From Eledone cirrhosa (Eukaryota), in contig OZ024740.1 of NCBI GenBank assembly GCA_964016885.1, positions 174,902,001-174,966,000 of the forward strand: a DNA stretch of 64,000 bases. The letters are read 5' to 3'. Positions within the stretch are counted from its first letter, which is position 1; the number at the start of each line of letters is the position of its first letter. The position numbers and the translations under genes were made by a program. The notes beneath the pieces were generated by a model. That model did not search any database, was not told where the DNA came from, and saw only the letters and a list, made by a program, of their open reading frames with translations. Below, one piece after another: positions 4,556-60,714 of the stretch.

Positions 4556-4789
4556 CTCTCTCTATATATATATCATTTCATCATCATTTCACGTCCGCTT
4601 TTCTTTGCTTGCAAGGGTGGCACGGGAACTGATTCTGGCTTGATTTCTACAGCTGGATGCCCTTCCTAACACGAACCTCATTTACAGTGAGTGCTGGATG
4701 CTTTTTTCCGTGGCGCCTACACGTCCACTTTACAGTGTGGGCTGGGTGCTTTTTTTGCCGTGGCACCTCCATGACCACTTTGCAGTGGA

Positions 4790-20128: not shown

Positions 20129-20320
20129 GGGCGGTGGATTGGCAGTATCGGTAAGGGTCGGACGCCATGCTGTGAAGCATAGACTTACCTCCCTTTATGA
20201 TTTGAGTTCAAATCCCACCGAGGTTAACTTTGCCTTTCATCCTTACAGGGTCGATAAAATAAAGTACCAGTAATGCACTGGGATAATTGCTGGCCTTGTG
20301 CCAAAAGTAGAAACAATTAT
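20129..20320 (+). mobile_element. Abundant tRNA-derived SINE (representative copy)
   Basis: A-box-like TGGCAGTATCGG, B-box-like GAGTTCAAATCC and core GCCTTTCATCCTTAC.GGGTCGATAAAATAAAGTACCAG. Other copies at ~16190, 23410, 24100-24730, 28040, 29425, 29915, 50873, 51076, 53935, 54328, 54740 and 62030. Confidence 0.85.
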
Positions 20321-21104
20321 TATATTAATTATATTTTTATACACGGTTTAGACATTATATTTGTAATGTTCTTCTGAACGAATTGCGAGCAATTTATAAT
20401 GTTATTTAAGCATTTCTAATGTTATTAATGTATATATTTAAAACATTATTCAACTGTAAACTTATACATTTGTAAATTAATTAATTGAAATCGAGTGTAT
20501 TTCATTAGAAATGCTGTCACGAAAAATATAACCCTTTAATGCGTATTCATATGTGAATGTAGCATAGCCGAATGATTAAAAAGTTCGCTTCGCTATTCAT
20601 TAGGTCCCCGGGTTCGATCTCACAGCGTAACATCTTAGGCAAGTGTCATTCGCCAAAGCCTCTGGTTGACTTATGACTTGTGAGTGAAATTGGGTAGACG
20701 GAAACTGTTTGGAAGCCTGTCGGATGGACTGTACTTGTAATTCGAAGCGCCAGCCTTGATACACTGTGTTACGCTGAATCTCCCAGAAAATTACATTAAA
20801 GGTACACGTATCTGTGGAATATTCAACCACTTACATATTAATTCCGTAAGCAGGAACAACTGAAACACTTACCGTCGAAATCGACGGAAGCCCTATATCT
20901 ATATCTTTACATAATAGAAAAAATAATTACTACACTTATTCTTTCTATTATATAAAGATATAGAACCTACTAGGTGTGTAGTGTTATACAATCTCATTTT
21001 CGTTTGTTGATTCTGAGTGACAGCAATAAATAACATTCATTCATCATCAATGTATCTTCATTGATTTTTTCAGTAAAAGTAGAAGGGAAAAAGCATACAA
21101 TTCA

Positions 21105-21797: not shown

Positions 21798-22035
21798 TCA
21801 TCATCATCATCATCATTTTACGTCCGCTTTTTCCTGCTTGCATCTCCTCCGTGAGCTTCAGCGATCTGAGGTCCGCTCTCACCACCCCCGGCCATGTTTT
21901 TCGTGGTCTTCCTCTACTGCGTCTTCCTTCTACTGCCATTTCTTGGCACTTCTTTACCCAGCTATCATTCTCCATGCGCATCACATGTCCATACCATCGC
22001 AGTCTTCTCTCCTGCACACGACATCTTATCCCTCT
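21798..22035 (-). mobile_element. RTE LINE 3' end with (GAT)n tail
   Basis: RRLRWYGHVMRM..GRRSRGRPRKTW followed by GGACGTAAAA(TGA)n. Confidence 0.8.
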
Positions 22036-22055
22036 TATATATAGATATATATATA

Positions 22056-22209
22056 GAACAAAGAAAATGTGGTAAGGAACCAGGTGGACCATAACACACT
22101 AGAGTAGTCGATACTTAGGGTAGTAGAAGAGGCAATAGGAAAAGAGTCAGGACCCCGACGGCTGAGCTCCGAGTTCGGATCAGCCGTCGGGGTCCTGACT
22201 CTTTTCCTA
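22056..22209 (-). mobile_element. Penelope-type fold-back insert, family D (shortest copy)
   Basis: Hairpin 22136-22209 plus a ~80-nt unpaired tail. Same end points as 47604-47813 and 60134-60714. TA flanks. Confidence 0.75.
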
Positions 22210-24099
22210 TATATATGGAAAGGTAAAGACACCTTTCGGTCACGAATGGCTATGGATTATGCCCCTAGAAAATTGTCATCCGAAGCATAAGCCCAGGCAA
22301 GGTGTTCGGCGAGTTCGGCTCGGGAGATATTGCTCCGTTGGGAGCGTTTATGGAAGTTGAACCGTTTCACACCGCGATGGCTGGCGCCAACGAATGTGTC
22401 CAGGGTGCTGAATTGTCTGGTTCCTGGTGTTCTATGAGATAGTCGCCGGCCCAGGTCCAAGAAGTAGTCTGGGTAATTCAGAGCCGCTAGTGTGCCATAT
22501 TTGGTGGAACGTAGGAAGGTAGGAACCGTCCAATATCCAAGCGGTGCGAAATTCGCCACTATAAGTGGTATGGGGTATGAAGCGTAGACACTTACCTACG
22601 AATGAACGTTCAGGTCCGGAGATAGGAAGGTCGCTGAGTAGAGTGACAAGTTTTAGGATGATAGGGGTTCAATGGCGTTGTCAGGTAGAAGTGGAGACAT
22701 AAACCTCGGGTGGAGGAACATGGAGGTGAAGGCAGTAACTGAGGAAAGGGATGTGGCGGATGTGCCGGTTTTTGCGAAAATGGGGTACGAAGGTCGGAGA
22801 GCGAGTTTGATGCAGAAAGGGGGAAGGAGATGAGGAAATGTTTTCAGTGGGAGTGCAGGTGGTGGAGGAAGGTTTTCTGGTGGGGAATTGTAGGGAAAGA
22901 ACCACACGGAAGAGAGAGGAAGAGGAAGTAAGGAGATGGTAACAGGGAGAAGAGCAGCCGGGAGAGAGACAAGGAAACATTACAGAGGAAAAAGTGGTGA
23001 AGGAGAGCCGTGGAGGATTAAAGATGAATAAGTAAAATAAATATGATTTACGAAAGAAACAAATCAATAAAAATGGAATCAACCTCAGCTGGTTTCATTG
23101 ACGAGTGTTGCATTTGTTCGGTCAACGGAACAGCCTGCTCATTAAATGAATGTGTAAGTGGGTGAGCAACCCCAATCCTGGACTCGATACTTTTTTATCG
23201 ACCTCAAAAGACAAAGTTAATTTCAGCGTAATTTGAACTCAAAAAGCTAAAACGAGTACTGGAAAGCATTCTATTTGATGTTCCATCGAATCTGCCAATT
23301 CACCGCCAATCGATCTATAAATACTAATAAATAGATACTATATTATACTAAACTATAAATATTTGTTATTGGAAGATGCATATTTAGAATGTGTTTTACT
23401 AAAGATAATGGTTTCTGATTTAGGCACAAGGCCAACAATTTTGAGGGAGGGGAAAGTCGATTAAATCTACCACAGTGTGTTACTGGTACTTTTATTGTAT
23501 CGACCCCGTAATAATGAAAGGCAAAAAATAACCTCGGTGGGATTTGAACTCAGAACATAAAGAGCCATAACTTTATGCCGAAAAGCATGTTGTCCGATGC
23601 TCGCCCGATACTGTCAATCCACCGCCATCGAAAGATGATGAATAATATTAATGTCAATTTTTATGACAAGTGGACATAGACATTTACTTCTGATTTAATA
23701 TTGTTACCTATATATGTACATGTCTCATGCGTTACATAAGAACATATACGTTAATGTCACTTCAACTCTTATAACAGTTAATAGAGGCCGCTTAGCACTG
23801 TTTTGCTCGGGGGTGGTCTATAATGCTGTTAAGATGGCCGTGTTATGTATAAGTTTAAGAGAGAGGGAGAAAAGAAACTAAAACTCATGAGTTATTCTCA
23901 AACCGGAGATCTGGTTCGATTGCTTGCATCAGAATGGACGTAGCTAAAGACACCCAAGAGCCAAGTAGTGGTATTAAACTGATCAATAGATTAAATCCAG
24001 GAAAAAATACGTTACAGAAAAAAGTCACATTTTATTTAAATACCATAAAAAGGAAATTTATTTAAAACAGTAAAAACTGATATCGATAAAGGATTAATA

Positions 24100-25470: not shown

Positions 25471-25814
25471 ACAATTTCACTTCGGAACAGTTGTTACAAC
25501 TGAGAATTGGAATTTCTATAGTAATCTACGCCATATTAGAATAGTAGAAATAGAAATATTCACGTAACTTTGGTTATTTTGATGGCTATCCTCAATATTA
25601 ATGCTATTCTAATAGAAAACTGGTATTTTTCTTCGCCTATGGTACAATATATACCGAAAATAACATGGATCAACTCTATACAATCAAGCTACAAATAAAG
25701 TCCAATATTTACTCGTATAAAATAGGATAGGGAAGAAGTTGCAGTGTGGTAGGTATCTGGCTGTTCAAGCAACTGTACAAATTGTTAGAATATATATATA
25801 TATAATATATATAA

Positions 25815-26339
<525 letters not shown>

Positions 26340-27967: not shown

Positions 27968-30900
27968 GAATATCATAAGTGTAAACACCTAAAGATACAT
28001 GTGTGTGTTTTTCTTGAACATAATAATAATAATATTAATCGGTAGAGCATCAGACACTATGTTTTGCAGCATAGCGTTACGGCCCTTTACCATCTGAGTT
28101 CAAATTGAGGTTAGCTTTGCCTTTCATTCTTACGAGGAAGATGGTACAGGTAACAGAGCATTAATATTTAAAATGAAGAAAAACCAAGGTTAATTTAAAT
28201 CCATTCTTTAATTTCTACGTACGTTTCTATACAGGTGACAATGGTACATGCTTATGTATACAATAAAGTAATCGGAAACAGTTAATTAGCAATTATTTAC
28301 TCAAGACCTAATACATGTAACATCTGCATATCTTCAGGAAATATAAGAAGGAATAAAATTTACCAAATTGAAATAATAAGAATAAATCCCATATCAAATA
28401 TTGGACGTAAGACAAGCATTTAACGAAGACTACATGAAATGGTTTTAGCCTGCAGAGTTGTAAGGGATTATGAATATAGATTGAGGTTAGAAGCATTATT
28501 TTATTATTATTATTAATACTAGCAAAAAAAACACCGTTCGGGTGGTTTTCTGCTAGCATGTGTAGTGTGTATATTGATATTATACGCAAGTATATATGCA
28601 TGTAGATATGATCAAATAAAATCGTAATTGACAATATACACAGAAATTGAACGAAGACTGTGTTACACTGTCTTATGTAATCAGTAACATAATCCATGAT
28701 ACTTTAAAAAAAAACGATTTTATATATAAACTGTATTAGGAGAAAATTAGTGACATTTGAAAGTTTTAAAGAAGTGAATTTTTAAATAAGTAATAAAATA
28801 TATTTAATGAACAGCCACGAAATTTAGTAGATAAATTATGTAATATTCATCCATTATTTATTCAAAGTAATCCAACTTATTTTACTAAGGGGATAAAAAT
28901 TATAAACCGTACGCAGTCCCGCGCTTCTTACTTGATTATAGTTTAGATATTTGTTATTTCCTATAATAGAAGAATATTTGTTGGTGTTTAGATAAAATAC
29001 ATAAACAGGAATATGAAAAGCGAGGAAGAGAAGCGAAATTAGTTTAGAGGCAGCGATAAGAATTTCGCGTAATTCTTCAGGAAATTTATATCATACCAAT
29101 TTTCTAGAAATAATTTTGAGAGAGAGATGGCTATTATTGCTAGAAGGTCGAACGACCGCATAGAGATGTCATCTCTGTTTTAAAGGTCAACTTGAATTGA
29201 TGCTAGGATCGCAACATAGTTCTATGTGTAGGTCTACATTCATGTACTTTTAATTTTTCATGAAGTTACTTTCTTATGAGCAGTTGTTCAGGACTCCAAA
29301 TGTTCTCTAGCCCAGGACCCTTACTGCTTTAATCTTGATCTGCATGTGAGTATAGATATTATTATAGCGGAAATACCTGGAACAGCAGAATTGATATTCA
29401 ATATACTACGAGGCAGCATTATTGGTGGATTGGTAGTATCGGTAGAGGGTCGGACGCTATGCTTTGACGCATAGAGTTACGGCCCTTGCCATTCTGAGTT
29501 CGAATCCCGCCGAGGTTAACTTTGCCTTTCATCCTTACGGGGTCGATAAAATAAAGTACCAGTAATGCACTGGGTATTTGCTGGCATTGTGCCAAAAAGT
29601 AGAAACAATTATTAAGTATCAGTAGACAAAGTTACAGAAGACTAATATTATCTATTTTCTTATTCCTTCACAACGTCCTTGAGAATGTAAGAGACATTTT
29701 GTGACTGAATATTAAGACTTGAATCTATTGGCACGATCAATGTCGATATTATGTAATAACAATGATAATGATTTCTGACATTTTGTGAGAATTGATTTAA
29801 TAGATCGCTTTATTTGACTGGCATCGTCTACCGAAGGATAAAAGCTAAAATCGACCTAGGTTGAATTTGAAATCAGAAAAACAAAGGGACATCAATGATA
29901 TCTGAAAATGATGGATTGATTGGCAGAATCGTTCGAGCGTCGAATAAAATTCTTTGCGGTATTTATTTCGTTTTTTTTTTTTTAATGATCTGAGTTCAAT
30001 TTTCGCCGAGATCAACAATGTCATTTGTGCGTCCGTGATCGATTTTATAAAGTACCAGTGGAGTACTGGGTCGATTTAACCGATTAACCCCTCCCACCCA
30101 AATTACTATTCTTAAACTTGATTGTTTATTTATCAAGATAGAGTATTGAATGGAGCATAGTCACAAGAGGAATTTATATTGATAGTGATATTAGAAAATC
30201 CTATTTCATTCCCTTATTTCATTAGATTAAACTTATCACTGCATTGTATAAATAATATTGTTGTCTAATTTGCCTTTCATCATTTCGTGGTCGATAAATA
30301 AAGTACCAGTCCCGTAATGAGGTAAATTCTTCCTTCACTCACGTTCTCTCTCTCTCTCTTTCTCTTGAGGAAATCGGAAGTGTTAGGGTGGGTTCCACCA
30401 GGTTTAAATACCCCAAATATGTAATATGTCACTAAGGTGCCCCTGTGACTCAATCGGGAGGTAAGAACCCATGTCATATTATGTCGTTGTTTGATCAATC
30501 TATTGCAAAGAGAATAAACCGGTGCGGAAAGTTTACCAGTGGTCGTATTCAATTAATCTGACATCTTCAATTACGCATTCATAATCATACACCAAAAGTT
30601 GTCTACTTCGTTCATATTTTATCATGAGGAAAAACCAAAGTGTTTCTATCTTGAACTTATTCGATAGGTGACTTTATCTGGGATTATGTATCGAAACTGG
30701 AATAATTACGTTGTGGAAGATTGATCAGAGCCATTTAAAACATACAACTACCTTCATATTTACTATGTAGTGTCAAAAATGTTTATCATACATCTGCGAC
30801 CGGGTCATTGACATTATTCCACTGCTGTCAAAATTTGTCTCTCTTCTTTTCTTCACCCACAATATGTCCACACACTCCAGGCCCACACTAACTGCTATGC

Positions 30901-38804: not shown

Positions 38805-38959
38805 GTATATAATATATACACATGTATATATATATATATACATGTGTATATATATATACATGTATATAATATATACACATGTATATATATATATATATAT
38901 ATACACACACATGTATATATATATATATATACACATGTATATAATATATACACATGTAT

Positions 38960-41205
38960 ATAATATCTCACTCAGAATCTCTAACCTTTCATCTAACCAG
39001 GATGTATTCGATAAAAATGCGCCCTTTTATTACGAAGCTTTAGCTAGAAGCGGCCACAAAAACAAATTAGTCTATATACTTTGCACCAATAATACTTCAA
39101 ACATACAACCCAATATTACCAACAAACACCAAATGTAAAATCCACACCTAAATTCCACTCACACTACACCCAAAAATACCAACCTAAAACTTAATTTCTC
39201 TACCTCTTCTCACATAAAATATGACTTTCAAAACACCATTCATCCTAATACTCCAATATACGTTAATAACATTACTAACAAAATTCCTAATAATCAGACT
39301 AAAACACCTAAATCAGTTAATCTAACTAAACCTATATATAATAAATTCACTAATAGTAACTCTCGTAGTAAACATCCTGATACATCGTATAAATATAAAA
39401 AACAATATCGAAACCGTAATAGACGGGTTACTTGGTATAATGCTCCATTTAATCTAAAAATTAAAGATAATATCCCTAAAAATGTTTTTACTATCCTAGA
39501 GAAAAACTTCCCGCCAAACCATAAATACCATCAAATTTTAAATAGATTAACTGTCAAATTTTCCTACTCTACTACCAAAAATATACAACAAAATATAAGT
39601 GCGTACAACGCATATAAATGTAAAAAAAACCACGACTATATCACCAACACATCAAACCAACGATAATACTAAAATAAACCGCAACAAACCACCATCTCCT
39701 TCACATATAACAAGTCGAGTAAATTCCACACCAAATTTGACTAACTCCCCTGATATAATATTCACGAATGGTTGTAACTGTAGAAACAAAAGAAATTGCC
39801 CATTAAAGGGAAATTGTCTTATTAATAACATAGTCTATAAATGTAAAATTAGCACTAAGGACTCCACTTATTCATATATAGGAGCTACGTCTAACCAATT
39901 TAAAGTAAGATTTAATACCCACAAACATAGTTTTATAAATGCCGCATTAGCTAATACAACATCCTTGGCTGAAACAATTAATAATTATAGAAAAAAGAAT
40001 ATCGATTACAACCTGACCTGGAGTGTGCTCAAAAGGGCCACCCCCTTATCAAAATAACAGATATGAGAGTAGATTATACTCCCAGGAACTTTTTGAAATA
40101 ATGAAATCTAAGGATATCCTATTAAATAAGCGACAAGAATTAATTATATCTTGCAATCATAGAATTAGAAGACCTTCAAATATTATAAACCTAATGAATA
40201 TACACCTTACACTTATATTTTACATATTATTATAATTAGTTTTTTAAATTTAGTTAACCTATAATTCGTACTTTACTACAGAGAACTTCATAATTTTATT
40301 TCCCTCTTACAGCTCTATTTTCCTAAATTTAATACCTAAAAGTATACATATAAATTAATTTAATTTCCTGTTATGAATTTAGATTCCTTGTAGTTTATAT
40401 AAGATTGGTATTTTTCACTACTACTCTTATCCCAAAATTTTATTTTCCTTCGTTTTTCACAACATTGTTTAATAACATCTAATTCTTATTTATCACATCC
40501 ATATGAATTAATATAAATTTATCCCTATAAGTATGCCTATCAATTAATTTAATTTCTTGTTAAAGATCTAGATTCCTTGTGGTTTAAATAAGATTGGTAT
40601 TTCTCACTAACACCCTTACCCTAAAATTTTACTCCTTCGTTTTTAACATTATTCTTTAAAAACATCAAATTTTCGTGTACCCTTCCCCAAAGTATTCTTT
40701 TCATTCAAAGTATTCTTTCCATTCAAAACATAAGTCTGCACTCCTCTACCCCTAAATTAAATTTCTAATACTACTATTCTATCAACTTGACCTCTTACTA
40801 CTTTTCTATTGGTGAATTCAAAACCTGTTCCCAAACAGACCTATTATATTAAATCTTTCTTGGTTTTTTTCAATAAACAAATCTCATAATTTCTGAAGAC
40901 AGCATATATATGTGAAGGTATGTATATTTCCTCTGATAGTTTGTAATATTTTTACATAGATCTATATGATATACATACCAACACACATATATATCCTAGA
41001 AACGATCGTAAAATGATGAATTTTTTAATATAAGGTACTTGTTCTTTGTTTTTATTCATTGTTTTTATTAATTTATCTTGACTCTGTTTTTCTATGATTT
41101 TCATCAAAAATTTTTTGAATGCATCTTCTCTTTTCATGATATTTGGATTACATTGAGTTCTTCATACGGATTGGACACTACCGTATATTTTGGTAGATTT
41201 ATCTA
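38960..41205 (+). mobile_element. 5'-truncated Naiad-type Penelope-like element (RT thumb, GIY-YIG endonuclease, 3' UTR/pLTR)
   Basis: [64 protein letters not shown] (CxCx5Cx5C) and IVYKC..YIGATSNQFKVRFNTHKHSF. Confidence 0.9.
40885..41018 (+). ncRNA. Type I hammerhead with ~100-nt extended stem II
   Basis: ATTT-CTGAAGA-[ATATATATGTG..GGTATGTATAT / ATATACATACC..CACATATATAT]-GAAA-CGATCG-TA-AAAT. Confidence 0.7.
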
Positions 41206-42101: not shown

Positions 42102-42949
<848 letters not shown>

Positions 42950-44073: not shown

Positions 44074-44140
<67 letters not shown>

Positions 44141-44236
44141 AGATGTCAACATGAATGGACCTGTTATTTTTATCTAAAGACATTTTTTCCAATTCCATCC
44201 CGCCCGTCCTCTCAATCTATTTTATTTTTTATTCTT

Positions 44237-44272
44237 TCTTCTGATGAAGGACTAGCGTCCGAAACATTAAGA
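44237..44272 (+). ncRNA. Minimal hammerhead (stem III reduced or mutated)
   Basis: TCTT-CTGATGA-A-GGAC-TAGC-GTCC-GAAA-CAT-T-AAGA inside a ~220-bp TA-flanked insert (44138-44360). Confidence 0.6.
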
Positions 44273-44359
44273 CCCTCTTCTTGCTATATCAAGCGTTAAC
44301 CTAATACATACCTTCCATATGCTGTACCGATTGTGTTGCTATTTCTGTTTACCTTTTAC

Positions 44360-44386
<27 letters not shown>

Positions 44387-44390
<4 letters not shown>

Positions 44391-45320
44391 AATAACAAAT
44401 AAAATATAGAGTTATTAACTCATATAGATACCCTGCAATTAACTAGCTCAAAGTATAAATACTGAGCATTATAATATTAATATCTGTAGAAGTAAACACA
44501 GTAAACCAGTGTCTAAAATAACGAGGGTAGATTACACCACAAATGTTATATATCATTCAACCTGAATCATATGGGATGTTACTAGATTTCTTACAAGATT
44601 TCTCATACATACCATATCAATAACCATTTCATCTCCCGGACAGACTAAAGATTTAATCTGTTTCACCCTGAATGAATCGTGTTTGTAACAAATAATCCGT
44701 AGGCATTTCGTCAGCAGGAGATAAGACTAAATGTTACATAACACCTATAACAATAAACTCACTAAAGTTTACACCTCGTGCGTTGAAAGTCATATGCGGT
44801 GCGAGTGGTTATGCTAGAAATAATAGCCTATTTACACTCATTTTTATAAGCTCAACAGATAATGCTCAGTATTTATACTTTGAGCTTGTTAATTGCAGGG
44901 TATCTATATGTTAATAACTCTATATTTTATTTGTATTTCGGCTCCTTATCTGTTGAGCTTATAAAAATGAGTGTAAATAGGCTATTATTTCTAGCATAAC
45001 CACTCGCACCGCATATGACTTTCAACGCACGAGGTGTAAACTTTAGTGAGTTTATTGTTATAGGTGTTATGTAACATTTAGTATAATCTCCTGCTGACGA
45101 AATGCCTACGAATTACTTGTTACAAACACGATTCATTCAGGGCGAAACAGATTAAATTTTTAATCTGTCCGGGAGATGAAATGGTTATTGATATGGTATG
45201 TATGAGAAATCTTGTAACATCCCCTATGATTCAGGTTGAATGATATATAATATTTGTGGTGTAATCTACCCTCGTAATTTTAGACACGGGTTTACTGTGT
45301 TTACTTCTACACATATTAAT
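44387..45320. mobile_element. Circularly permuted inverted dimer (family B) with hammerheads at 44631-44722 (-) and 45086-45177 (+)
   Basis: ATCTCCTG-CTGACGA-AATGCC..GGGC-GAAA-CAGATTA/TAATCTG-TC-CGGGAGAT. 44395-44472 is the reverse complement of 44861-44935, and 44473-44862 is the reverse complement of 44946-45320. Confidence 0.8.
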
Positions 45321-45335
45321 ATATATATATATATA

Positions 45336-45579
45336 AGCAAATTATAAATGTAAACATGTAAGTATGTTTTTGAAACGGTGCGCGAGTTTGAAATTTAAAA
45401 ATTAGAAATTATAAGCGTTCACCGTATTTTAGACTAAAGAAATTTCTAGCCTGATAGTGGGGTTTATAACCCTCGGAGAAATGGAAAAAGATGAGTGTTG
45501 CCGTACATATATATATGTACGGCAACACTCATCTTTTTCCATTTCCCCGAGGGTTATAAACCCCACTATCAGGCTAGAA

Positions 45580-45582
<3 letters not shown>
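45336..45582. mobile_element. Near-perfect ~140-bp palindrome plus ~105-nt tail between TA tracts
   Basis: 45440-45582 is self-complementary about the central (TA)n. Same asymmetric layout as the other inserts. No hammerhead retained. Confidence 0.65.
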
Positions 45583-45664
<82 letters not shown>

Positions 45665-45670
<6 letters not shown>

Positions 45671-47505
45671 TAACAGATTAAAGTTTAAGCAAAGAATCAC
45701 TGTTTTCACCCTTAACGGGATCTTCTGAAACTAAAAAAGTCAATCTGTGAACGCAGAAGAAAAAATTTCAAAAACGTTGCAACCGGAGGAAGACAGGAAG
45801 ACGATACTTTGGTTCGTAGAAACGTTCCCTGGCTAAGAACTGGAAAAAACGAAGATAATACGCCATTATTTGGAGCGGTGAAAAACATTTGCACGCAAAG
45901 ACAAAACCACGTTTATGGTATAAATGAAGTCATAGACTAAAATTCTAACTAGGAAACCGAATGATTCTCGGCTTCAGAGTTAAGAATAAAGAAAATAAAA
46001 TACAGAGGTAATTGAAATTAAATAAATACATACACGCATCCATATACGTACATACACAAGCATACGCGAAAACACTCGCCATAGGTATACAAATACAAGC
46101 ACGTACACAAAAAACCCGCACGCACATACAGAACCCACGCAACGCCTGTACCCGCACACATACGAACGCATACACCAAATACACATAAAAATATATATTT
46201 TTAAAAAAACATATATATATGCGTGTATACATATAATTAAATAAACGTATATAAATAAATAAACACGTATATAACGCGCGCACACACATACCTACATGTA
46301 AATACACATATATCCGCAGATGTTATTTCCGTTATACGATCTAGCCTTAGCTAGGATCTCCCAGTGTAACTTATATTGGGTGTGGTTGTCTTTTAGACTC
46401 CAGATATAAGCTGAAAGTGACGTCATATTCCTTCTTAAAGGGTTAAGAAAAGAATGGGTATGCATGTAAAGACGCTGCTTGAATCTATTGGCGGTTAACC
46501 CTATGTAGGCCCTACGGGACGTGGCTGTTTCAACCTTACATTTGTAGACAATGTTAATAGAGAGGCATTTCCCGGATAGGGGGCAGTCAACCCGATTCCT
46601 ACAATTACAGTTAGTACTAGCTACAGGGTTGCACGTGTTCCTACGGCTAGGTAGTTTAGCTAAATTTGAAGCTGTTATGTTATGTGCAAGGTTAGGAGTC
46701 GTAGAGTAAGAAATTTTAATGGTATTTCTATTAAAAAATGTTACTATATTTAGTGCTGGGGGGGAAATGCTTGATAATAAGGGAGAGAAAGATCTTAGCT
46801 AATGGTGTGGCCACTTCCATATTATATGGTGGGTTATACCTATATAATTATAGGATCTAATTTTCCTAGGTCTATTTTCGTACTCTGTATATGCTACCTT
46901 ATCGACAAATCCACTCCGAGCAAGAGCTTCATTGTAATATGTGGAATGGTCGTTGAAAATATGCTCGTTAGTAGATAGACGGGAAAGCCTCAAAGAAACG
47001 TTTCATACCAGGTTCTTGGTTATGCTGGCAGAATGGTTAGAATGCTTACTTATGTAATTAAGCGTATCATTCGGCTTTCTATACGGGTAGTGCAAGCCAT
47101 TCGACAAACTGAGGGTAACGTCGAGGCAATTAACGACCGAGAGGTTGGCCTCAACCTGTATGGAGAGGTTGAAGCCGTTAAAGAAGGATGTGAGTTCTTT
47201 TCTGAACCTGTCTCAAGCACGTGGGCCGCACTTTGTCATGGTCAAAAGACCATCATCACGGTGCAAACCACCGCCCACGTTGGAGAATTCTTCCTTGATT
47301 GAGAAAAGAAGGAAAAGGCCGATAAGATCAGTAACCTCCGCAGAATCGGTGGCGCCCATACTCACGTCGAATGGGGTACTATTAGATTTTTTAATCCAAA
47401 TAGAGTCGTCGAAGCTCTACGGTTCTTATATATTTGATATATATTTATCCTTATCGAGCCCTCTTTGGATTTTAGTCTTCAAATTTATTATAATTATTAT
47501 TACTA
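45665..47505 (-). mobile_element. Internally deleted Naiad-type Penelope-like element (RT core, GIY-YIG, family E pLTR) with an inverted tail at 47412-47505
   Basis: Minus strand: IWIKK..PFDVSMGATDSAEVTDLIGLFLL, YNEALARSGF and CNCRNRVDCPLSGKC..IVYKC..YIGLT. Hammerhead-like motif at 45682-45732. Confidence 0.9.
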
Positions 47506-47509
47506 TATA

Positions 47510-47587
<78 letters not shown>

Positions 47588-47603
47588 TATATATATATAT
47601 ATA

Positions 47604-47810
47604 TAGGAGAAAGTATGACCCCGACGGCAGAGCTCAAGCCGTTTCGACGGCTATTTCTGGACTAACTTACTTTACTCCAGAAATAACCGTCGAAACGGCT
47701 TGAGCTCTGCCGTCAGGGTCATACTTTCTCCTATTACCCACTCTACTACCCTAAGTATTGAGTACTCTGGTGCGTTATGGTCCATCTGGTTCTTTACCAC
47801 AACTCCTTCG

Positions 47811-47813
<3 letters not shown>
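47604..47813 (+). mobile_element. Family D fold-back insert (intermediate copy)
   Basis: Arms 47604-47662 and 47676-47733 contain the hammerhead 3' half GAAACGGC..GCCGTC. About 80-nt tail. TA flanks. Confidence 0.75.
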
Positions 47814-47848
<35 letters not shown>

Positions 47849-47851
<3 letters not shown>

Positions 47852-48159
47852 GGAGGTGAGTTTTATTGTAGCACAATAAAGCAATGCAAATATCGGATAA
47901 GTAGCACTCCAAAGTTTATAGGACTGGATTATAATGATATTTGCGTTCTCATCAGATAAAATAGGGAGACATGATATGAAGCTTAAAAAACACTTGCGAG
48001 CAGTAAAGTGTTAAATCAGCATATGAAAAATAAAGTAAGATGGATATATGAGATTGGGAAAAAAAGGAGGAGGGGGGAAGGAAAAGGTAAGGAAGAGGAA
48101 GAAAGAAAATAAAGGATGACGGGGGAGGAGTATAAGAAGGAAGGATGAGAGAGGAGGAG

Positions 48160-48236
<77 letters not shown>

Positions 48237-50760
48237 TTTAATACTGAGAAACACTGTCTCACAGAGAAAATTAAAAAAATCGTTGTAAGATAATACATAA
48301 TTTTAAAAAAATTTTGAAATTAAAAGTTAATGAAGTTTATGAATAGTGATGTTTATGATTAAAGAAAAAGGAATTAAGAATAGTATTTATTTAAGGTTTA
48401 TATATTGAAGGGTTTAATAATATGTGCGAAAAGGAATTTATTAATATGTATTATTAAAATAAAAATATTAAGGATATAAGGTGAATGAAGAAGATATTAA
48501 ATGAATTATGAACTTAGAGGAATTAGTTAGTGTTTAAGTTTGTTTTTATGTATTGTAATATGAAAAAGTAAATAATAGGTTTAATACGAGCACGGAAGGA
48601 GAGAAGAAAGAAGAAAATATAATGAAGAAAAAATATAATGTCAAAAAAATATATATATATGTTTACAAAATTTACTAATGGTAATATTAGTATATATTAA
48701 AGATATAGTTTGTATGGCCAAGAATATAAGGAAAATGCTATAGTGAGTAATAATAGACGTACGGATTTATTTTCGCTCTGCTTGCATAAATCCCATAGAA
48801 CTAATATCTCAATACCTAATTAGTTTAAAATCTTCTTTTCTCAAACGCTTTTATATCTTTTACAAATATACCCATCTTTCTACCTTATTTCAGTATATTA
48901 TATTATACAATTTACTCATTCTATGTCGTTAACGGACCCTATTTTTTTTCCTTTTATCCTTTTTACTTTCTTCCTTTCTTCTTTTTTAATTTCTAATCTT
49001 TAATCTGTAACTTTTACTTCTCAATTACTTCTTAATTCATATTATTACTCACTATAGCATTTTCCTTATATTCTTCGCCATACAAACTATATCTTTAATA
49101 TATACTAATATTACCATTAGTAAATTAGTAAACATATATATTTTTTTTGACGATATATTTTTTCTTACTTAAATTTTCCTCTTTCTTCTCTCCTTCCGTG
49201 CTCGTATTAAACCTATTATTTACTTTTTCATATTACAATACATAAAAACAAACTTAAACACTAACTAATTCCTCTAAGTTCATAATTCATTTAATTTCTT
49301 CTTCATTCACCTTATATCCTTAATATTTTAATTTTAATAATACATATTAATAAATTCCTTTTCGCACATATTAAACCCTTCAATATATAAACCTTAAATA
49401 AATACTATTCTTAATTCCTTTTTCTTTAATCATAAACATCACTATTCATAAACCTCATTAACTTTTAATTTCAAAATTCTTTTTAAATTTTGTATTATCT
49501 TACAACGTTTTTTTTATATTCTCTGTGAGACAGTGTTTCTCGGTATTAAAGGCTATCTCTCTCTTTCTCTCTCTCTCTCACTCATTTTTCCTCCTCTCTC
49601 ATCCTTCCTTCTTATACTCCTCCCCCGTCATCCTTTATTTTCTTTCTTCCTCTTCCTAAGTTTTCCTTCCCCCTCCTTCTTTTTTCCCCCCAATCTCATA
49701 TATCCATCTCACTTTATTTTTCATATGTTGATTTAACACTTCACTGCTCGCAAATGTTTTTTAAGCTTCATATCATGTCTCCCTATTTTATCTGATGAGA
49801 ACGCAAATATCATCACATGATGATATTTGTTTTTGAAATGAGCATAATAAAATACATGGAGCTCTTTTAACCATCTTTTGATCTTATATTATTTATACTC
49901 CAGTCCTATAAACTGTGGAGTGCTACTTATCCGATATTTGCATTGCTTTATTGTGCTACAATAAAACTGACCTCCTACATTAACTTGCTCCTTGACTGTT
50001 TGAGCGCTAACTCTTATATTGGATACCTTTGATGGTCTCTAATTTTTCTTCTATAACATGTATTATTACAACATAACAACTTCAATTAAAGACCTTCCTA
50101 TACCTGGTAAATCTGAGTTCACTAACCTTCTGATTGAAAAAAAACTGACTCTTTTGTGAGAAGGCTTAGATGGATCGCTTTTTTCCACGACCAGCGCTTA
50201 AAAGGAAATTTCTATACTAAGGAACGTAACAATATTGATCATTTATTTAACTCTAGAAGAAATCCTTTTTCCAATAAAAATCTAGCGCAGTTTGAGGAAG
50301 AATTAACTAATATTATAAGAGGTCTTAAATTCAAGAGAAACCCTTATAGAGGACAGGAGCACCTTATAAATCTCAGGAATACGATTTCGGACCTTAATTC
50401 CTCTAAAAAAGTCTTAGTCCATTCCGACAAAACTAATAATTTATATGGCGTATCTAAAGATAAGTATTATAACCTTATCCTTAAGGAACTAAGGAAGAAT
50501 TATCGTAAAACTAACCATGACAATTTGGAATCTATAAACTTGGAAGCTTCTGAGATTATGTCTAAACTTGGCATCGAGAAAAAGACCGAACCATTCTTCC
50601 CAAGAACTCCGAGGATAAATCTCAAGGATCATAAAAGTAACTTTCGAACGGAACTGCCTGTTAGACTAATCGCCCCCTCTAAATCAGATCTGGGGTTGTT
50701 AGTAAATCCATCTTGGATAGAATTATCCCACAGGTTCGTTCTAATTGCTCTATTTCTAAC
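47849..50760 (+). mobile_element. Family C inverted pLTR pair (47849-48755 / 49040-49980) leading into a Naiad ORF N-terminus
   Basis: ~900-bp imperfect inverted arms, a hammerhead at 49784-49854, and the ORF below immediately downstream. Confidence 0.85.
50058..50760 (+). pseudogene. Naiad-type Penelope RT N-terminal region (frameshift in A-run at ~50140, 3'-truncated)
   Basis: MYYYNITTSIKDLPIPGK..LIEK / FVRRLRWIAFF..HSDKTNNLY..LKDHKSNF..RLIAPSKSDLG. Has DKT in place of the PLE DKG motif. Confidence 0.85.
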
Positions 50761-51496
50761 TTAAATTAGATACTGTCTTTGTAGCATTAGATTTAAAGTC
50801 TATGGTGACATTACAGACTATGGTCAGATATACATGGATATGGATAAGAAACTGGCACTATTAGATTAAATGGTGGATTGGTAGTATCGGTAGAGCGTCA
50901 GACACCATGCTTTGGAGCATAGAGTTATGGCCCTTTTCGTTCTGTGTTCAAATCCCACCAAGGTTAACTTTCCCTTTCATCCTTACGGGGTCGATAAAAT
51001 AAAGTACCAGTAATGCACTGGACTAATTGCTGGCCTTGTGCCAAAAATAGAAACAATTATTAGATTAAATATAAGGGCGGCGGATTGGCAGTATCGGTAG
51101 AAGGTCGGGCGCCATACATAGATTTACGGCCCTTTACGATCTGATTTCAAATCCCGCCGAGGTTAACTTTGCCTTTCATCCTTACGTGGTCGATAAAATA
51201 AAGTACCAGTAATGCACACTGAGATAATTGCTGGCCTTGTGCCAAAAGTAGAAACAATTATTATATTAAATATATAGGTGAGAAATAGGATGTAAGAAGA
51301 AACCTGATTGGAGGGTCTGTAAATAGAGACGGAAGAGGGAGAGAGACGTCAAAGGAGGAAAAAGGGAAGAAAATGAAAAGACAAAGACGTCCTTTGCAGT
51401 GGTCAGATAGGGTGGTAGATGGTCGGCAGGTATTTGTCGGTATAAGGGAATTTTGTAAATATTTCGTTTTCAGCGGTTTTAGTCATTCGAGAATTA

Positions 51497-52545
51497 ATGC
51501 TGAACAGTGCCCACTTCGTTTTTGAGTCCTCAGTTTTCCCAGGGAGTTCTCTGAATTTGGACGCAATAGTATCCACATACCTGGTCCTGACTTCCTTATC
51601 CACCAATGCTTCCCACTTTATCCTGTAGGTCGACCTAGACCTGACAGTTGTGTGGGCTTCTTTACTAGTTGCAGATAGCTAGATGGGGATCAGTTGATAG
51701 CTCAGTCCTTCTCTTAACACGAACACCCAGTACAGAATCAAAGAAACAATAACAAAATTACTTATTGACCTCTGACCCTGATTCCCCTTATACCACGTAT
51801 ATTTATGGATGTCTCTCTGCTGGAAGGTGTTCGTAATAGTGAGTCCATTGCTAGAACAGAAGTCTAATATGGTCTTTCCATTCGTAGTTAGATCGGGATC
51901 ACCGTTCCTTCCAATCACACCTTTCCATGTCAGACGGTCATTGCAAACATGTGCATTGAAGTCTCCCATTAGGATGTATGACCCAGTCTTAACTACATCT
52001 AACGCTGCGGTGACTTCATCAAGGAAGGATCTGTATTCAGACTCCTTGTTTGGTGCAAAAAAACTTGTACCACCCAGAGTGACCTATCTTTCAGCCTAAG
52101 CTTCAAGAGGCAAATCCTCCCTTCTAATGAAATCCAGTCCTTAACATATACTGACAGCCAGGGGCTTGTGAGTATCCCCACTCTCACCTGTGCAGTCATT
52201 TCTAGCGCTACACCTGAATAGTGGAGTTTCCATCCTCCAACCAAATCTACCGCACCAGAGCCACGAAACATTATTGAGGAAACCCCAAATATATCTAGCT
52301 GGTAGCATCTAGCTTCTTCCACAAGTTCTTGCTCCTTACCTGTAAGGGTTGTGAAGTTCCAGATTCCTATTGTCAAGGTTTTCTCCCTGCCAGACCCTGA
52401 TTGTGGTCTCGGAATACGCAATTTGTATGCCTCCATCCCACGCATCCCATGATAGGTCGCAGGAGAAGTAGCGGCTCTACCTGGAGCGACTCTCTGATCT
52501 CCGAGATACGTACTCTATCGAGTAACGTTACTCCAAAGACTTGGA
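51497..52545 (-). mobile_element. RTE LINE APE fragment, same family as 800-3889
   Basis: IGIWNFTTLTGKEQELVEEA..MGDFNAHV..NTFQQRDIHKYTW. 52475-52540 matches 940-1010. Confidence 0.85.
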
Positions 52546-53494: not shown

Positions 53495-55305
53495 GATGTA
53501 ATGCCACTCCATTTAACTACTTATATCTTATATCATTTTATTAGAATATATGTTTTCATTTCTTTGTTACACTCTTTACACAATTGAAAATTCAGTCACC
53601 CATGTTGCCTTGTCGAAAGAATGAGGCAATATATTCAATATAGTGTTTCACATGGAAAACTAATGAACGAATATAAGATAAATGTGTTTTAAGTAAATTA
53701 TGCCGTATGCAGACAGGAAGGTATACAAAAAATTGTGGCCAGAAACTTATTCGGGCGATTGCCAAAATCGTTAAAGTGTCAGGCGAAATGCTTTATGATA
53801 TTTATTTATGACCACCAAGGTAGAATTTGCCTTTTGTCCAACCAGAATAAATACCAGCCGGTATCGGGAGTCGATATAATCCTTACAAGAAAATCTCTGA
53901 CTTTATGTCTATGCTGCAAGCAATTATTTCAAGGCGGTGAATTAGCAGAATCGTTAGAGCGTCGGACAAAATGTTTTGTGGTATTTCTTCCAGTTCTATA
54001 TGTTCAGAATTCTATCCTTCTGTGTTTAATGAAATAAAGTACCAGTCAAGTATTGGGTTGATATAATCGACCCCATCCCCACAAATTGGTGGCTTTGTGC
54101 CTAAATTAGAAATCATTATTATATTGTTTCAGTAATTTTATGTTTATTATGTGGTTTTACTGGACAACCAAACGCAGCTCTGTATAACTTAGATACGTGT
54201 AGTGTTGCATTGTTGTGCTTTTATTTCTATTGTAATAAATATGCCCTACATAACAAGTGTATAGTCTTTGAAGATAGAAAACTGTTTTATTTTGTTCATC
54301 TTTTGTGGCTATATTAATTGCTCTGTATTGGTAGTATTGGTAGAGCGTCAGACACCATGCTTTGAAGCATAGAGTTACGGCCCTTTGCGGTCTGAGTTCA
54401 AATCCCGCCGAGGTTAACTTTGCCTTTCATCCTTACGGGGTCGATAAAATGAAGTACCAGTAATGCACTGGGATAATTGCTGGCCTTGTACCAAAAGTTG
54501 AAACAATTATTCTTTAAATATACTTTTATAGTACTATAGCAGATATTTTGTATCAATATGTAAATTGCAGAAACCCCATCCCTCCATGTGTTCGTGGAAA
54601 AATTTCTGTGTCAGTTTCATGTTTATGTATTTAAACGTGCGAGGATACTGCTGTGTAGTTCCTGGTTCGATCCCATAGCATCGCACTTGAGGGAAAGTAT
54701 CTTCTAGAAGTGTCTTTTAGCATATTGACAGATTGATTGGTGTCGAATAGAATAATCTTTGGTATTCGTTCCACCACTCCGCGCTCTGAGTGAAAAGCCA
54801 ACCAAGGTCAACTTTGCTTTTCCTCATTTCGAGTTCGATAAATAAACTACCAGTCCAGTACTCGATCGATGCCTTTTCTCCTTCGTTTTCGTCCTCTCGC
54901 TTTCTTCCAATCACTTTCTCTGTAAGTAATTGACTGGGGACAAAGCTACAGAGAGACAGGCTCCACCAGGCTTAAAATCTCTCAAGAAATGCCGTACGCC
55001 ATGTCAGTGTGGCTTCTTATCGAAGAGGTCCAAAGGATCTCAATGAATGAACAAATATTATACAACACCTGCTTAAAGCTTTCCAGTTTGGAGAAGTTGT
55101 TGTTTCTTTTGTCTTCAGAATTTAGTTATTCAATAAAGAAAGAGAGCAAACTGGAGAGCGAAGACTCAACCAAGTAATTTAGTTATCGGCATCAGAATAA
55201 GGGAAGACAAACTTCACTTCGCCGAGATCTGGAACAAATACAAGGCATTTTCTCCGGCGTTCTAACGATTCAACTAATTCACTGACTTTTATATATATAT
55301 ATATA

Positions 55306-56196: not shown

Positions 56197-56264
<68 letters not shown>

Positions 56265-56267
<3 letters not shown>

Positions 56268-57435
56268 ATAATAATAAATGCGAAGACTAAAATCCAAAGA
56301 GGGCTCGATAAGGATAATTAGATAATTATATATTAAATATATAAGAACCCCAGAGAAAATATTTATTAAAATAACAGATTAAAGTTTAAGCAAAGAATCG
56401 CTGCTTTCATCCTTAACGGGATCTTCTGAAACCAAACAAAATTCAATCTGTGAACGCAGAGGTAAATATTTCGAAAAACGTTGTTACCGAAGGAAAACAG
56501 GAAGACGACACTTTGGTTCGTGAAGACGTTCCCTGGCAATGAACGGAAAAAAGCGGAGATAATACGTCGTTATGTGGATCGCTGAGAACAATTACACGCA
56601 AAGACAAAACCACGTTTATGGTATAAATGGAGTCATTAAACTAATATTCTATTTAGGTAACCGAATGATTTTCGGCTTCGGAGTTAAGAATAATGTAAAT
56701 AAAGTAGTTGAACCAGAATGACAGAGGTTATTAAAATCATAAAAGTAATAATAATTAAATATATACACATATCTAAATAGTACATACACGTGCATACGCA
56801 AAATACACGCCATGCATGCATATACATGCACGTACACATAAACACGCGCTCACGTACGTAAACCGGCGCGACACATATACCCGCACACATACGGACATAT
56901 ATATCAAATACACATATAAATATGTGTGTGTGTGTATTTATATATGTATATATAATTATATATACATATATAAATATACCCGCATAAATGCGCATGTAAC
57001 GCACACACATACATACCTACAGGTAAATACACATGTTCACCAAACGTGAACTAAAACCTATCTTCACAACTACGCACCATACATACGTGCAAACACACAT
57101 ACACACTCATACATACCCATATATACACATATACAAACCTTACAGCTTACAGCAACACATACACATACCCAACGATAATCTACGTCTTGATGTGGTAGCT
57201 AAGTATATTTTATGTTTATACCATTACTTATTTGTATAGTAAGTATACCTTACCCGTATGTTTGTGGAGGTACGTATATATGCTTGTTTATGTTATAGGA
57301 GTATATATTATATATATTAGTGTGTGTGTATATAGTTATGTGTATGTGTGTGTATATTTGTATGCGTATATGCGTGTGTGTATATATGTATTTGTGTATA
57401 TTTATTTATGTATATTTATGTGTATATTGTATATT

Positions 57436-57498
<63 letters not shown>

Positions 57499-58616
57499 AA
57501 TATGGGTGAGAAGAATACTGCTGGTTGCACATGGATAACATGTTATAAAATGAGTCCCTCATCAGTGATTTACCAAACGATCATGGGTATTTCATCGCAT
57601 TAAAAATCATATACCTCACGTTGGAGCGATAATAACTAAAATAAGTTACTAGGACATATATATATATTTTTTTGACATTATATTTTTTCTTCATTATATT
57701 TTCTTCTTTCTTCTCTCCTTCCGTGCTCGTATTAAACCTATTATTTACTTTTTCATATTACAATACATAAAAACAAACTTAAACACTAACTAATTCCTCT
57801 AAGTTCATAATTCATTTAATATCTTCTTCATTCACCTTATATCCTTAATATTTTTATTTTAATAATACATATTAATAAATTCCTTTTCGCACATATTATT
57901 AAACCCTTCAATATATAAACCTTAAATAAATACTATTCTTAATTCCTTTTTCTTTAATCATAAACATCACTATTCATAAACTTCATTAACTTTTAATTTC
58001 AAAATTTTTTTAAATTTATACCTAGACTGGATTTCTGATGACACCGAGCTCACATATTAATTATTTCGCTGGAATAGTGCCTAAGGTGTTCATGTTTACA
58101 TAAAGTACGTTTTTCTTCTATGTATTCAAATTTACTTTGTTTAGTTTAATGAGCTACATCGAAAGCTACTTGAACCGTCCAAAGGACGGGTAGTTTAGCT
58201 AGTACACATATATATACTATCGCACTCCCACTCACTCAGTCCCTGTTTCTCCCCTTCTTTCTTCCTCCCGTTCGCTGGGAAAAGGGTTTTCACTCTTTCT
58301 AACACCGGATTCACTAGCGAAAGGTCTGTTTTCTGACTCGCTCATATATTCACACAGCTTATGCTGAAAGAATAACTATGTTGCTTGTATTTATTTCCAT
58401 CTTCGGTTAGCTTCCCCCCGTGTTGTTTACTTGTCTCACTCGCTTTACGCGTTTCTATTGTCCTAATAACTTATTTTAGTTATTATCGCTCCAACGTGAG
58501 GTATATGATTTTTAATGCGATGAAATACCCATGATCGTTTGGTAAATCACTGATGAGGGACTCATTTTATAACATGTTATCCATGTGCAACCAGCAGTAT
58601 TCTTCTCACCCATATT

Positions 58617-58673
<57 letters not shown>

Positions 58674-59749
58674 AATATACAATATACACATAAATATACA
58701 TAAATAAATATACACAAATACATATATACACACACGCATATACGCATACAAATATACACACACATACACATAACTATATACACACACACTAATATATATA
58801 ATATATACTCCTATAACATAAACAAGCATATATACGTACCTCCACAAACATACGGGTAAGGTATACTTACTATACAAATAAGTAATGGTATAAACATAAA
58901 ATATACTTAGCTACCACATCAAGACGTAGATTATCGTTGGGTATGTGTATGTGTTGCTGTAAGCTGTAAGGTTTGTATATGTGTATATATGGGTATGTAT
59001 GAGTGTGTATGTGTGTTTGCACGTATGTATGGTGCGTAGTTGTGAAGATAGGTTTTAGTTCACGTTTGGTGAACATGTGTATTTACCTGTAGGTATGTAT
59101 GTGTGTGCGTTACATGCGCATTTATGCGGGTATATTTATATATGTATATATAATTATATATACATATATAAATACACACACACACATATTTATATGTGTA
59201 TTTGATATATATGTCCGTATGTGTGCGGGTATATGTGTCGCGCCGGTTTACGTACGTGAGCGCGTGTTTATGTGTACGTGCATGTATATGCATGCATGGC
59301 GTGTATTTTGCGTATGCACGTGTATGTACTATTTAGATATGTGTATATATTTAATTATTATTACTTTTATGATTTTAATAACCTCTGTCATTCTGGTTCA
59401 ACTACTTTATTTACATTATTCTTAACTCCGAAGCCGAAAATCATTCGGTTACCTAAATAGAATATTAGTTTAATGACTCCATTTATACCATAAACGTGGT
59501 TTTGACTTTGTGTGTAATTGTTCTCAGCGATCCACATAACGACGTATTATCTCCGCTTTTTTCCGTTCATTGCCAGGGAACGTCTTCACGAACCAAAGTG
59601 TCGTCTTCCTGTTTTCCTTCGGTAACAACGTTTTTCGAAATATTTACCTCTGCGTTCACAGATTGAATTTTGTTTGGTTTCAGAAGATCCCGTTAAGGAT
59701 GAAAGCAGCGATTCTTTGCTTAAACTTTAATCTGTTATTTTAATAAATA
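56265..59749. mobile_element. 3.5-kb family E insert: ~1.29-kb near-identical inverted arms (56360-57656 / 58459-59749), ~800-bp spacer, ~95-nt tail
   Basis: Mirror-image ORFs in the track. Hammerhead-like motifs at 56383-56433 (-) and 59676-59726 (+). Tail 56265-56359 is homologous to 47412-47505. Confidence 0.85.
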
Positions 59750-59750
59750 C

Positions 59751-60069: not shown

Positions 60070-60133
<64 letters not shown>

Positions 60134-60137
<4 letters not shown>

Positions 60138-60714
60138 AACGAGTAGGACCCCGACGGCTGAGCTCAAGCCGTTTCGACGGCTAATTCTGGACTAAATGAA
60201 AATTTTTATCTTGGTATATGAATAGCCGAGCTTCTCAGGGGGTAATTCCATATATGGTAAAAGTGATTGGTCAAAAGTTTGTTGTTGAGACACATAATTC
60301 TATCATGGCAATTTGTGGAAGGAAGGGGTAGCTGAACCTGCCAGTAGAAGAAAGAGGGAGAGGGCGTGGAGGAAACCCAGTCGCACGATGGGTTTCCTCC
60401 ACCCCCTCTCCCTCTTTCTTCTACTGGCATGTTCAGCTACCCCTTCCTTCCACAAATTGCCATGATAGAATTATGTGTCTCAACAACAAACTTTTGACCA
60501 ATCACTTTTACCATATATGGAATTACCCCCTGAGAAGCTCGGCTATTCATATACCAGGATAAAAATGTTCATTTAGTCCAGAATTAGCCGTCGAAATGAC
60601 TTGAGCTCAGCCGTCGGGGTCCTACTCGTTTCTATTACCCACTCTACTACCCTAAGTATTGAGTACTTTAGTGCGTTATGGTCCACCTGGTTCCTTACCA
60701 CATTTCCTTCGTTA
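60134..60714. mobile_element. Family D fold-back insert (longest copy) with hammerhead-like motifs at 60148-60243 (-) and 60525-60620 (+)
   Basis: ~230-bp arms. ACCCC-CTGAGAA-..CGGCTA/TAGCCG..-GAAA-CGGC..GCC-GTC-GGGGT. About 80-nt tail. TA flanks. Confidence 0.8.

Follow-up and report, generated by a model that had tools for sequence, protein, structure and literature searches.

The 64,000-nucleotide stretch of Eledone cirrhosa DNA analysed here, referred to below as the window, is AT-rich animal DNA full of microsatellites, with remnants of RTE-type LINEs, SINEs and DNA transposons. PLE-type insertions follow one another in (TA)n between 44.1 and 47.8 kb, a hotspot where they are stacked, and the present account centers on the one at 44387-45320. 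This insertion consists of two copies of a single short unit, inverted and joined head to head, each being a one-unit permutation of the other. On the plus strand, (TA)n is followed by X' (44387-44472), Y' (44473-44862), X (44859-44938), a 7-nt linker, Y (44946-45320) and (TA)n again, and the microsatellite therefore adjoins both outer ends. The features of the locus are as follows.

44359-44386, no strand: (TA)n target microsatellite on the left, between the insertion and a hammerhead-core remnant at 44138-44358
44387-44862, minus strand: left arm, Y and then tail X, primed at site 2 (the tail end)
44387-44472, minus strand: tail X of the left arm, with its own hairpin 1 at 44467-44446
44631-44722, minus strand: type I hammerhead of the left arm, core 44714-44708, predicted cleavage after 44639
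44859-44862, no strand: 4-nt microhomology at the head-to-head joint of the two cDNA ends
44859-45320, plus strand: right arm, X-linker-Y, primed at site 1 (the Y end), 462 of 465 nt
44859-44938, plus strand: tail X between the two priming sites, compared with families B and D and with the Hydra consensuses
44864-44885, plus strand: hairpin 1 (RCTC-stem-loop-stem-NN-GAGY), 6 nt 3' of site 1, pairing 0.99 in the circular fold
44939-44945, plus strand: 7-nt linker, present in the right arm only, carrying the 5' arm of hairpin 2
44941-44958, plus strand: hairpin 2 (GCTC..TT-GAGC), 6 nt 3' of site 2, pairing 0.39, one inner base pair
44946-45320, plus strand: segment Y, read as a remnant of a 5' UTR joined to a pLTR-type 3' UTR
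45086-45177, plus strand: type I hammerhead of the right arm, stem I 45086-93 with 45170-77, core 45094-45100, GAAA 45144-47, stem III 45147-45168
45318-45335, no strand: (TA)n target microsatellite on the right, followed by further PLE-type insertions at 45335-45600 and 45658-47509

The immediate neighbour on the left (44138-44358) is a short element with a hammerhead core and a degenerate stem III, and that on the right (45335-45600) is a 144-nt palindrome with a tail of about 110 nt that lacks the Hydra hairpin.

An earlier note on this DNA described both an X-to-Y and a Y-to-X junction, with about one unit per arm, and this layout is borne out by self-BLAST and pairwise alignment: the former junction lies on the plus strand and the latter on the minus strand. 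The X pair (44859-44938 on the plus strand against 44472-44390 on the minus strand) is 95% identical over 83 nt (E 1e-30), and the alignment of the Y pair (44946-45320 on the plus strand against 44862-44476 on the minus strand) contains 363 matches and 12 substitutions, the left arm carrying a 12-nt duplication relative to right-arm Y. The segment given as X in that note (44861-44945) had to be divided into X proper (44859-44938) and the separate linker (44939-44945), and Y was kept at 44946-45320. Counted in right-arm alleles, the unit is 465 nt long with 33% GC. The right arm holds 462 nt of it; the left arm measures 476 nt, of which about 458 remain after subtraction of 15 nt inserted in this arm and 3 nt at its end, and the last few nucleotides of left-arm X before (TA)n look like slippage. 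The two arms overlap in the 4-nt microhomology, and the inner end of the left arm falls within hairpin 2, the 5' arm of which is missing there. Since the arms differ by about 3% plus indels (13 substitutions, 2-3 indels), they are not an assembly duplicate; the innermost 137 nt of Y show no differences between them.

The two priming sites proposed for the insertion were recovered as well, the left end lying at site 2 and the right end at site 1. The same pairing of ends is found in every two-armed PLE locus of the window for which both outer ends were traced (8 of 8: A, which is the present locus, B1, B2, C1, C2, D47, D60 and F; B3 was omitted, its right end being untraced), and in each the arm carrying site 2 extends 68-100 nt beyond site 1 as a tail. 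One end at site 1 and the other with a tail reaching site 2 is the arrangement of a known PLE tail, and X is therefore identified as such a tail. Each of the seven outer ends that were measured has a hairpin 4-6 nt to its 3' side, hairpin 1 in the case of site 1 and hairpin 2 in that of site 2. A strict scan for this hairpin gave eight matches in the window, seven of them in PLE tails (families A, B and D), against a mean of 0.14 in 100 shuffles, the pattern having been defined post hoc. The hairpin of family F has a 1-nt bulge, and family C gave no strict match. The inner stems of the tail hairpins are wholly different between families, yet paired. A relaxed form of the pattern is not discriminating by itself (59 matches vs 30 +/- 7), and whole tails fold no better than shuffles.

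Hairpin 2 bears directly on whether X, linker and Y belong together, because it spans the linker and the start of Y. A counterpart of similar sequence occupies a like position in autonomous family B (49987-50005), just ahead of the ORF, and the Y-side half of the hairpin is also present in the left arm, which has not jumped. Similarity to the family B post-tail hairpin as great as that of linker plus Y start is found in 17 of 21,877 segments of the window. In an anchored test of the motif, which was picked after being seen, 53 of 2000 dinucleotide shuffles do as well; a two-block match of the unit to the 5' UTR of family B is marginal (27 of 2431 windows). The spanning hairpin argues that X-linker-Y is native, most likely a Hydra-type element's 5' end and 3' UTR fused together, and judging from these sequence features the 465-nt unit is most likely a real non-autonomous element, not the product of an untemplated jump. 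Counting against this are the weak pairing of hairpin 2 (0.39), the failure of whole tails to fold better than shuffles, and a whole-unit alignment with family B that does not reach significance. With a copy 4-6 nt beyond each of the two priming sites, the bulged hairpin is a candidate for the RNA signal that is recognized in the Hydra clade. When the published Hydra consensuses were inspected by eye, hairpin 1 was clear in three of six, degenerate in one and absent in one, the sixth having no coverage at this position, and Hydra-1_Ajap appeared to have two such hairpins about 60 nt apart. The hairpin as a Hydra feature is an observation of this analysis and stands outside the published definition of the clade. 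The words 'hairpin' and 'stem-loop' are absent from the main text of Craig 2021 (PMC8557442), and no description of a twin hairpin beside Hydra priming sites was found in the open-access literature covered.

The hammerhead lies about 150 nt ahead of site 1. In the right arm the GUC site is at 45167-45169, with predicted cleavage after C45169; in the left arm two stem substitutions yield G-U pairs. Both arms run through the predicted cleavage site without a scar. In a circular fold from which 3 junction nt were omitted, stems I and III pair at 0.78-1.0 (z -2.2; 1 of 60 shuffles as low). Stem II starts 3 nt past CUGACGA, giving a non-canonical junction, and in the left arm another structure has the free MFE (-22.7 kcal/mol, against -21.8 for the hammerhead, a gap of 0.9). 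Rfam returned no match in the whole window at the gathering threshold; ranked by E-value over 44100-45700 it returned 23 matches, which are generic miRNA-type hairpins from palindromes and include no hammerhead. The description of a well-formed hammerhead in the earlier note is consequently true only in part: the 8-bp stem I and the GUC site stand, stem III is of 8-9 bp and not 7, and the late stem II, the lack of an Rfam match and the alternative fold of the left arm count against it. For the same three reasons self-cleavage is treated here as a prediction. Among predicted Xenopus retrozymes, 1 of 9 cleaved in vitro (10.64898/2026.07.22.740005).

The unit has no ORF for an RT, a CxCX5C linker or a C-terminal GIY-YIG endonuclease, and tblastn and profile comparison with 22 PLE proteins revealed no PLE coding remnant in Y. 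This agrees with the earlier statement that no ORF is present, in the sense of no protein-like one. A 74-codon ATG frame spans the junction in right-arm alleles only (the longest in the left arm has 37 codons), and it was rejected as a product of chance, since 6.4% of 1000 shuffles reach that length. Neither of the two candidate matches of a 45-codon junction frame in the 90% protein set was upheld, and a single match among the 50% representatives (E 3.5e-4, 32% identity, four stretches) was treated as compositional. Self-BLAST found no second copy of the unit in the window and no head-to-tail tandem array, the two copies present being inverted. A 24-nt motif of the unit had no matches in GTDB genomes, and a sigma-70 promoter scan stayed at chance level, the bacterial consensus being irrelevant to a eukaryotic host.

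The identity of the element that supplied the proteins can be judged from the coding PLEs nearby. Those at 46295-47413 and 39139-40168 have an RT followed by a CxCX5C linker and then a GIY-YIG endonuclease, and the one at 50058-50764 has an N-terminus with RW and DKT motifs. A C-terminal endonuclease together with the CxCX5C, DKT and RW motifs characterizes the Hydra clade, which includes Hydra-1_Obim from Octopus bimaculoides, whereas Naiads have an N-terminal endonuclease and no canonical hammerheads (Craig et al. 2021, PMC8557442). Pfam left the PLE fragments unclassified (best match GIY-YIG, E 0.022), and the clade call therefore rests on the motifs and on the 22 homologous proteins. The earlier attribution of copying to a Naiad RT does not agree with these data, as the neighbouring PLEs have a C-terminal endonuclease and Hydra motifs and the unit has a three-stem hammerhead that, like its tail hairpin, is similar to those of published Hydra elements; a Naiad helper was rejected because its endonuclease would be N-terminal and every mapped PLE coding remnant in the window has the RT before the endonuclease. 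On sequence grounds the partner is a Hydra-clade PLE and the unit a protein-free derivative thereof, and the view of it as a non-autonomous, retrozyme-like hammerhead unit is supported. The unit has no significant DNA similarity to the coding PLEs in the window: its whole-unit alignments with families B, C and E and with the 39-kb element are not significant, those with family B being equalled by 409 of 500 and 494 of 500 shuffles.

Other PLE insertions in the window provide the comparative material used above. Family B is represented by three insertions (25806-26185, 42250-42896 and 47847-50764) with hammerheads at 25911 (minus strand), 42790 and 49792 (both plus strand) and an 88-nt tail. 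One of the three is twin-primed with tail only; another skips about 80 nt, from site 1 to the hammerhead, and its other arm reaches the 5' UTR and a frameshifted ORF start. Family C includes a broken RT-thumb-CxCX5C-GIY-YIG fragment on the minus strand (45658-47509) with an inverted tail alongside, and a large inverted insertion of the C 3' UTR (56260-59750) with captured microsatellites and a family B fragment, in which 1129 nt of arm are 100% identical. The insertions of family D (22035-22210, 47603-47812 and 60133-60712) are palindromes with a tail of about 78 nt at one end; they carry a tail hairpin as well as a hammerhead whose core is variant and whose stem II is long. Locus F (4308-4560), flanked on both sides by (TA)n, is a Hydra-type mini-insertion that has a permuted inverted layout, a minimal hammerhead and a tail hairpin; its site-1 arm is 1 nt from its own site at the stop, and about 21 nt of tail are skipped at a 2-nt microhomology. 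It is probably the product of a template jump, or else a mini-unit of about 120 nt. A Hydra-type fragment at 38959-40168, with RT-thumb and endonuclease, is degenerate and has stretches rich in asparagine and threonine inserted between its domains. Apart from PLEs, a SINE-like family of about 190 nt, with 80-90% identity, has about a dozen copies in 16186-62178 (for example 20133-20333, 29424-29614, 50872-51073 and 54324-54511), and we take it to resemble octopus SINEs. RTE-type LINE remnants, an R2/CRE-like RT-REL remnant and a broken transposase-like ORF pair lie at 910-3888, 51406-52538, 6307-10249 and 11111-12640, these labels being a reading of the translations and not a database comparison.

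How the unit was copied can be approached through the inner ends of its two arms. The right arm, primed at site 1, copies hairpin 1 in full and ends 1 nt short of site 1 itself. A stop 1 nt short of site 1 is shared by loci A, F and the twin-primed B2, and in B2 it is the primer of the partner that lies there. Because the right arm stops 1 nt before its own site, at the place where twin-primed neighbours meet the primer of the partner, the template appears to have behaved as a circle. The left arm is looser than this 1-nt rule: its inner end lies 5 nt within hairpin 2 and misses its own site by about 11 nt, a shortfall consistent with trimming to the microhomology. The site-2 arms of B2 and C1 consist of tail only, as expected if each ran into the primer of its partner on the same RNA. 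Under a null model of uniform truncation, the probability that both ends lie this near their own priming sites is about 7e-4, a post hoc value that takes no account of structure-induced stops.

The anatomy of the locus, taken with known PLE biochemistry, shows that a Hydra PLE protein acting in trans nicked both (TA)n strands and that a cDNA was primed at each of sites 1 and 2. Each priming site would be set by the bulged RCTC..GAGY hairpin 4-6 nt downstream. Along an RNA with the order tail with hairpin 1, hairpin 2, about 140 nt, hammerhead and about 150 nt to site 1, each cDNA would pass the cleavage site and the unit junction and run once round to its own priming site, which would make the template functionally circular. 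The two cDNA 3' ends are joined via the 4-nt microhomology, which gives the permuted head-to-head dimer that is present at the locus. The template may have been a hammerhead-made circRNA, with one RNA per RT subunit. However the template was closed, we lean toward the once-round model as a whole. That the template was a covalent circRNA made by the hammerhead is a tentative proposal, to which we would give somewhat less than even chances, and marginally greater caution applies to the full version, in which a Hydra PLE dimer binds the two repeated hairpins, copies covalent RNA circles exactly once per target strand and halts at its own primer. The earlier suggestion of a circular RNA copied once around thus stands insofar as the template behaved as a circle; covalent closure does not follow, since a linear RNA with strand transfer would yield identical DNA. 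DNA alone cannot separate these two forms, of which the covalent circle is ranked as the most likely. What weighs the circle down is that the Poseidon PAc RT in vitro uses mainly uncleaved linear RNA as template (PMC11167929) and that predicted retrozymes are often inactive; what weighs it up is that circRNAs from animal retrozymes are abundant (PMC7229834) and that stem III is well paired in the circular fold.

The strand-transfer route would start from a linear, terminally redundant RNA of the form Y-X-hairpin 2, beginning in or near hairpin 2. The site-2 cDNA would run off the 5' end of this RNA, and the site-1 cDNA, having reached the same end, would transfer by homology to the downstream hairpin 2; after this transfer, or a precise jump across hammerhead-cut ends, X would be copied up to a stop at its own primer. 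The product would be identical DNA with a seamless junction and no covalent circle would be required. Template jumps seem to happen in these elements, given the roughly 21 nt skipped in locus F, whose permuted layout and 1-nt stop are alike, and the roughly 80 nt skipped between site 1 and the hammerhead in the left arm of B3; the preference of PAc for uncleaved linear RNA points the same way (PMC11167929). However, the RNA 5' end would have to fall within about 11 nt of site 2, by chance or through an unknown start site, and both hammerhead cleavage sites are intact and scar-free, so that we regard this route as a serious but rather unlikely competitor. Another linear template would be an uncleaved tandem multimer transcribed from a retrozyme-type array, on which the two arms would represent independent 5' truncations at the structured, protein-bound hairpin region. 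Multi-copy tandem transcripts are indeed a proposed PLE template (PMC11167929), retrozymes occur as arrays (10.64898/2026.07.22.740005, PMC7229834), and in B1, B3 and F, too, there are arms whose ends fall at hammerhead stems or similar structured elements. An RT held up by a protein would halt before or inside the hairpin, however, and the right arm copies all of hairpin 1 and stops 1 nt from site 1, as in the primer collision of B2; two independent stops at near-unit length are also unexpected under the uniform null (about 7e-4). Such a multimer is, in our view, improbable.

Two further explanations were considered. Y might be the 5'-truncated 3' end of a long autonomous PLE with X as its tail, the linker having been added untemplated through a jump or fold-back. 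This would account for the same Y start base in both arms, filler nucleotides are seen at the B2 junction, and an inverted pLTR plus tail is the standard PLE layout (PMC8557442, PMC3846280). Against it, hairpin 2, which linker and Y start form, lies 6 nt past site 2, where autonomous family B has its own; the unjumped left arm contains the Y-side half of this hairpin, and Y lacks a PLE coding remnant. We consider this explanation very improbable. It is the alternative entertained in the earlier note, a template jump onto the 3' tail of the RNA, and the family-B-like hairpin disfavours it. Finally, an assembly artefact or a rearrangement of a single copy after insertion might be invoked, because palindromes within (TA)n are difficult to assemble (PMC8557442) and the inner 137 nt of Y are alike in both arms. 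The arms nevertheless differ by the 13 substitutions and 2-3 indels given above, and their outer ends lie at two family-type priming sites as in other loci, which leaves this explanation hardly credible. The once-round copying of a functionally circular template is the reading retained here.

Once-round copying may be compared with several known systems. In L1 twin priming, primers from opposite target strands give rise to an element whose 5' part is inverted and attached through microhomology. This layout is seen at loci B2 and C1; the present locus differs in that both cDNAs cover the whole unit and not complementary parts of a linear RNA. With Hydra-clade PLEs the locus shares (TA)n targets, a type I hammerhead near the 3' end and head-to-head inverted insertion with a tail at one end, as well as the stem III ACAG..CUGU, which is found in four listed Hydra hammerheads, and the stem I flanks of Penelope-1A_NV resemble those of the unit (PMC8557442), the published consensuses having been compared with it by eye only. 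It differs from them in having no ORF and a length of 465 nt vs 2-3 kb, in a tail of about 80 nt vs the 30-40 bp quoted for PLEs (PMC8557442), and in that each arm is a one-unit permutation of the other. Metazoan non-LTR retrozymes are, like the unit, small, non-coding, low in GC, furnished with a type I hammerhead and derived from PLEs (PMC7229834; 10.64898/2026.07.22.740005), and 465 nt lies within their range of 51-972 bp (10.64898/2026.07.22.740005). They have been proposed to move via a circRNA copied by a PLE RT (Cervera and de la Pena 2020, PMC7229834; Li et al. 2026). Retrozymes, however, are arranged head to tail, whereas the two units here are inverted and permuted; the modelled stem III of the unit is long enough for monomer folding, and PLE priming signals and an insertion signature are directly visible in it. 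In vitro, two internal RT start sites of Poseidon PAc bound the tail, and priming takes place on either strand of the target (Frangieh et al. 2024, PMC11167929). The locus resembles that system in the priming of both strands, the two internal starts and a protein-binding signal 3' of the starts, for which the hairpins here are candidates. Poseidon PAc belongs to a different clade, starts in an AC-rich stem-loop inside the ORF and uses a linear template, and the sections of PMC11167929 covered here do not describe a repeated bulged hairpin or a once-round stop.

The inverted pLTR with tail, two-site priming, retrozymes as PLE derivatives and the idea of a circular template are thus already known; a permuted one-unit inverted dimer read as the footprint of once-round copying was not found in the literature searched. 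For the replication of PLEs a circular intermediate was proposed in 2014 (PMC4209133), while the one PLE that has been reconstituted used linear uncleaved RNA (PMC11167929). The locus offers a genomic signature that can be counted genome-wide, namely two permuted one-unit arms with a stop 1 nt from the priming site of the arm itself, and the 465-nt unit is a candidate minimal substrate with which circular and linear templates can be compared in vitro. If the full version with covalent RNA circles is true, the locus would be the genomic footprint left by a circular-RNA intermediate such as was proposed for PLEs in 2014, and the 465-nt RNA would be a complete minimal substrate with all cis signals. 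The locus would also tie retrozyme-type units to a particular PLE clade through mechanism rather than co-occurrence.
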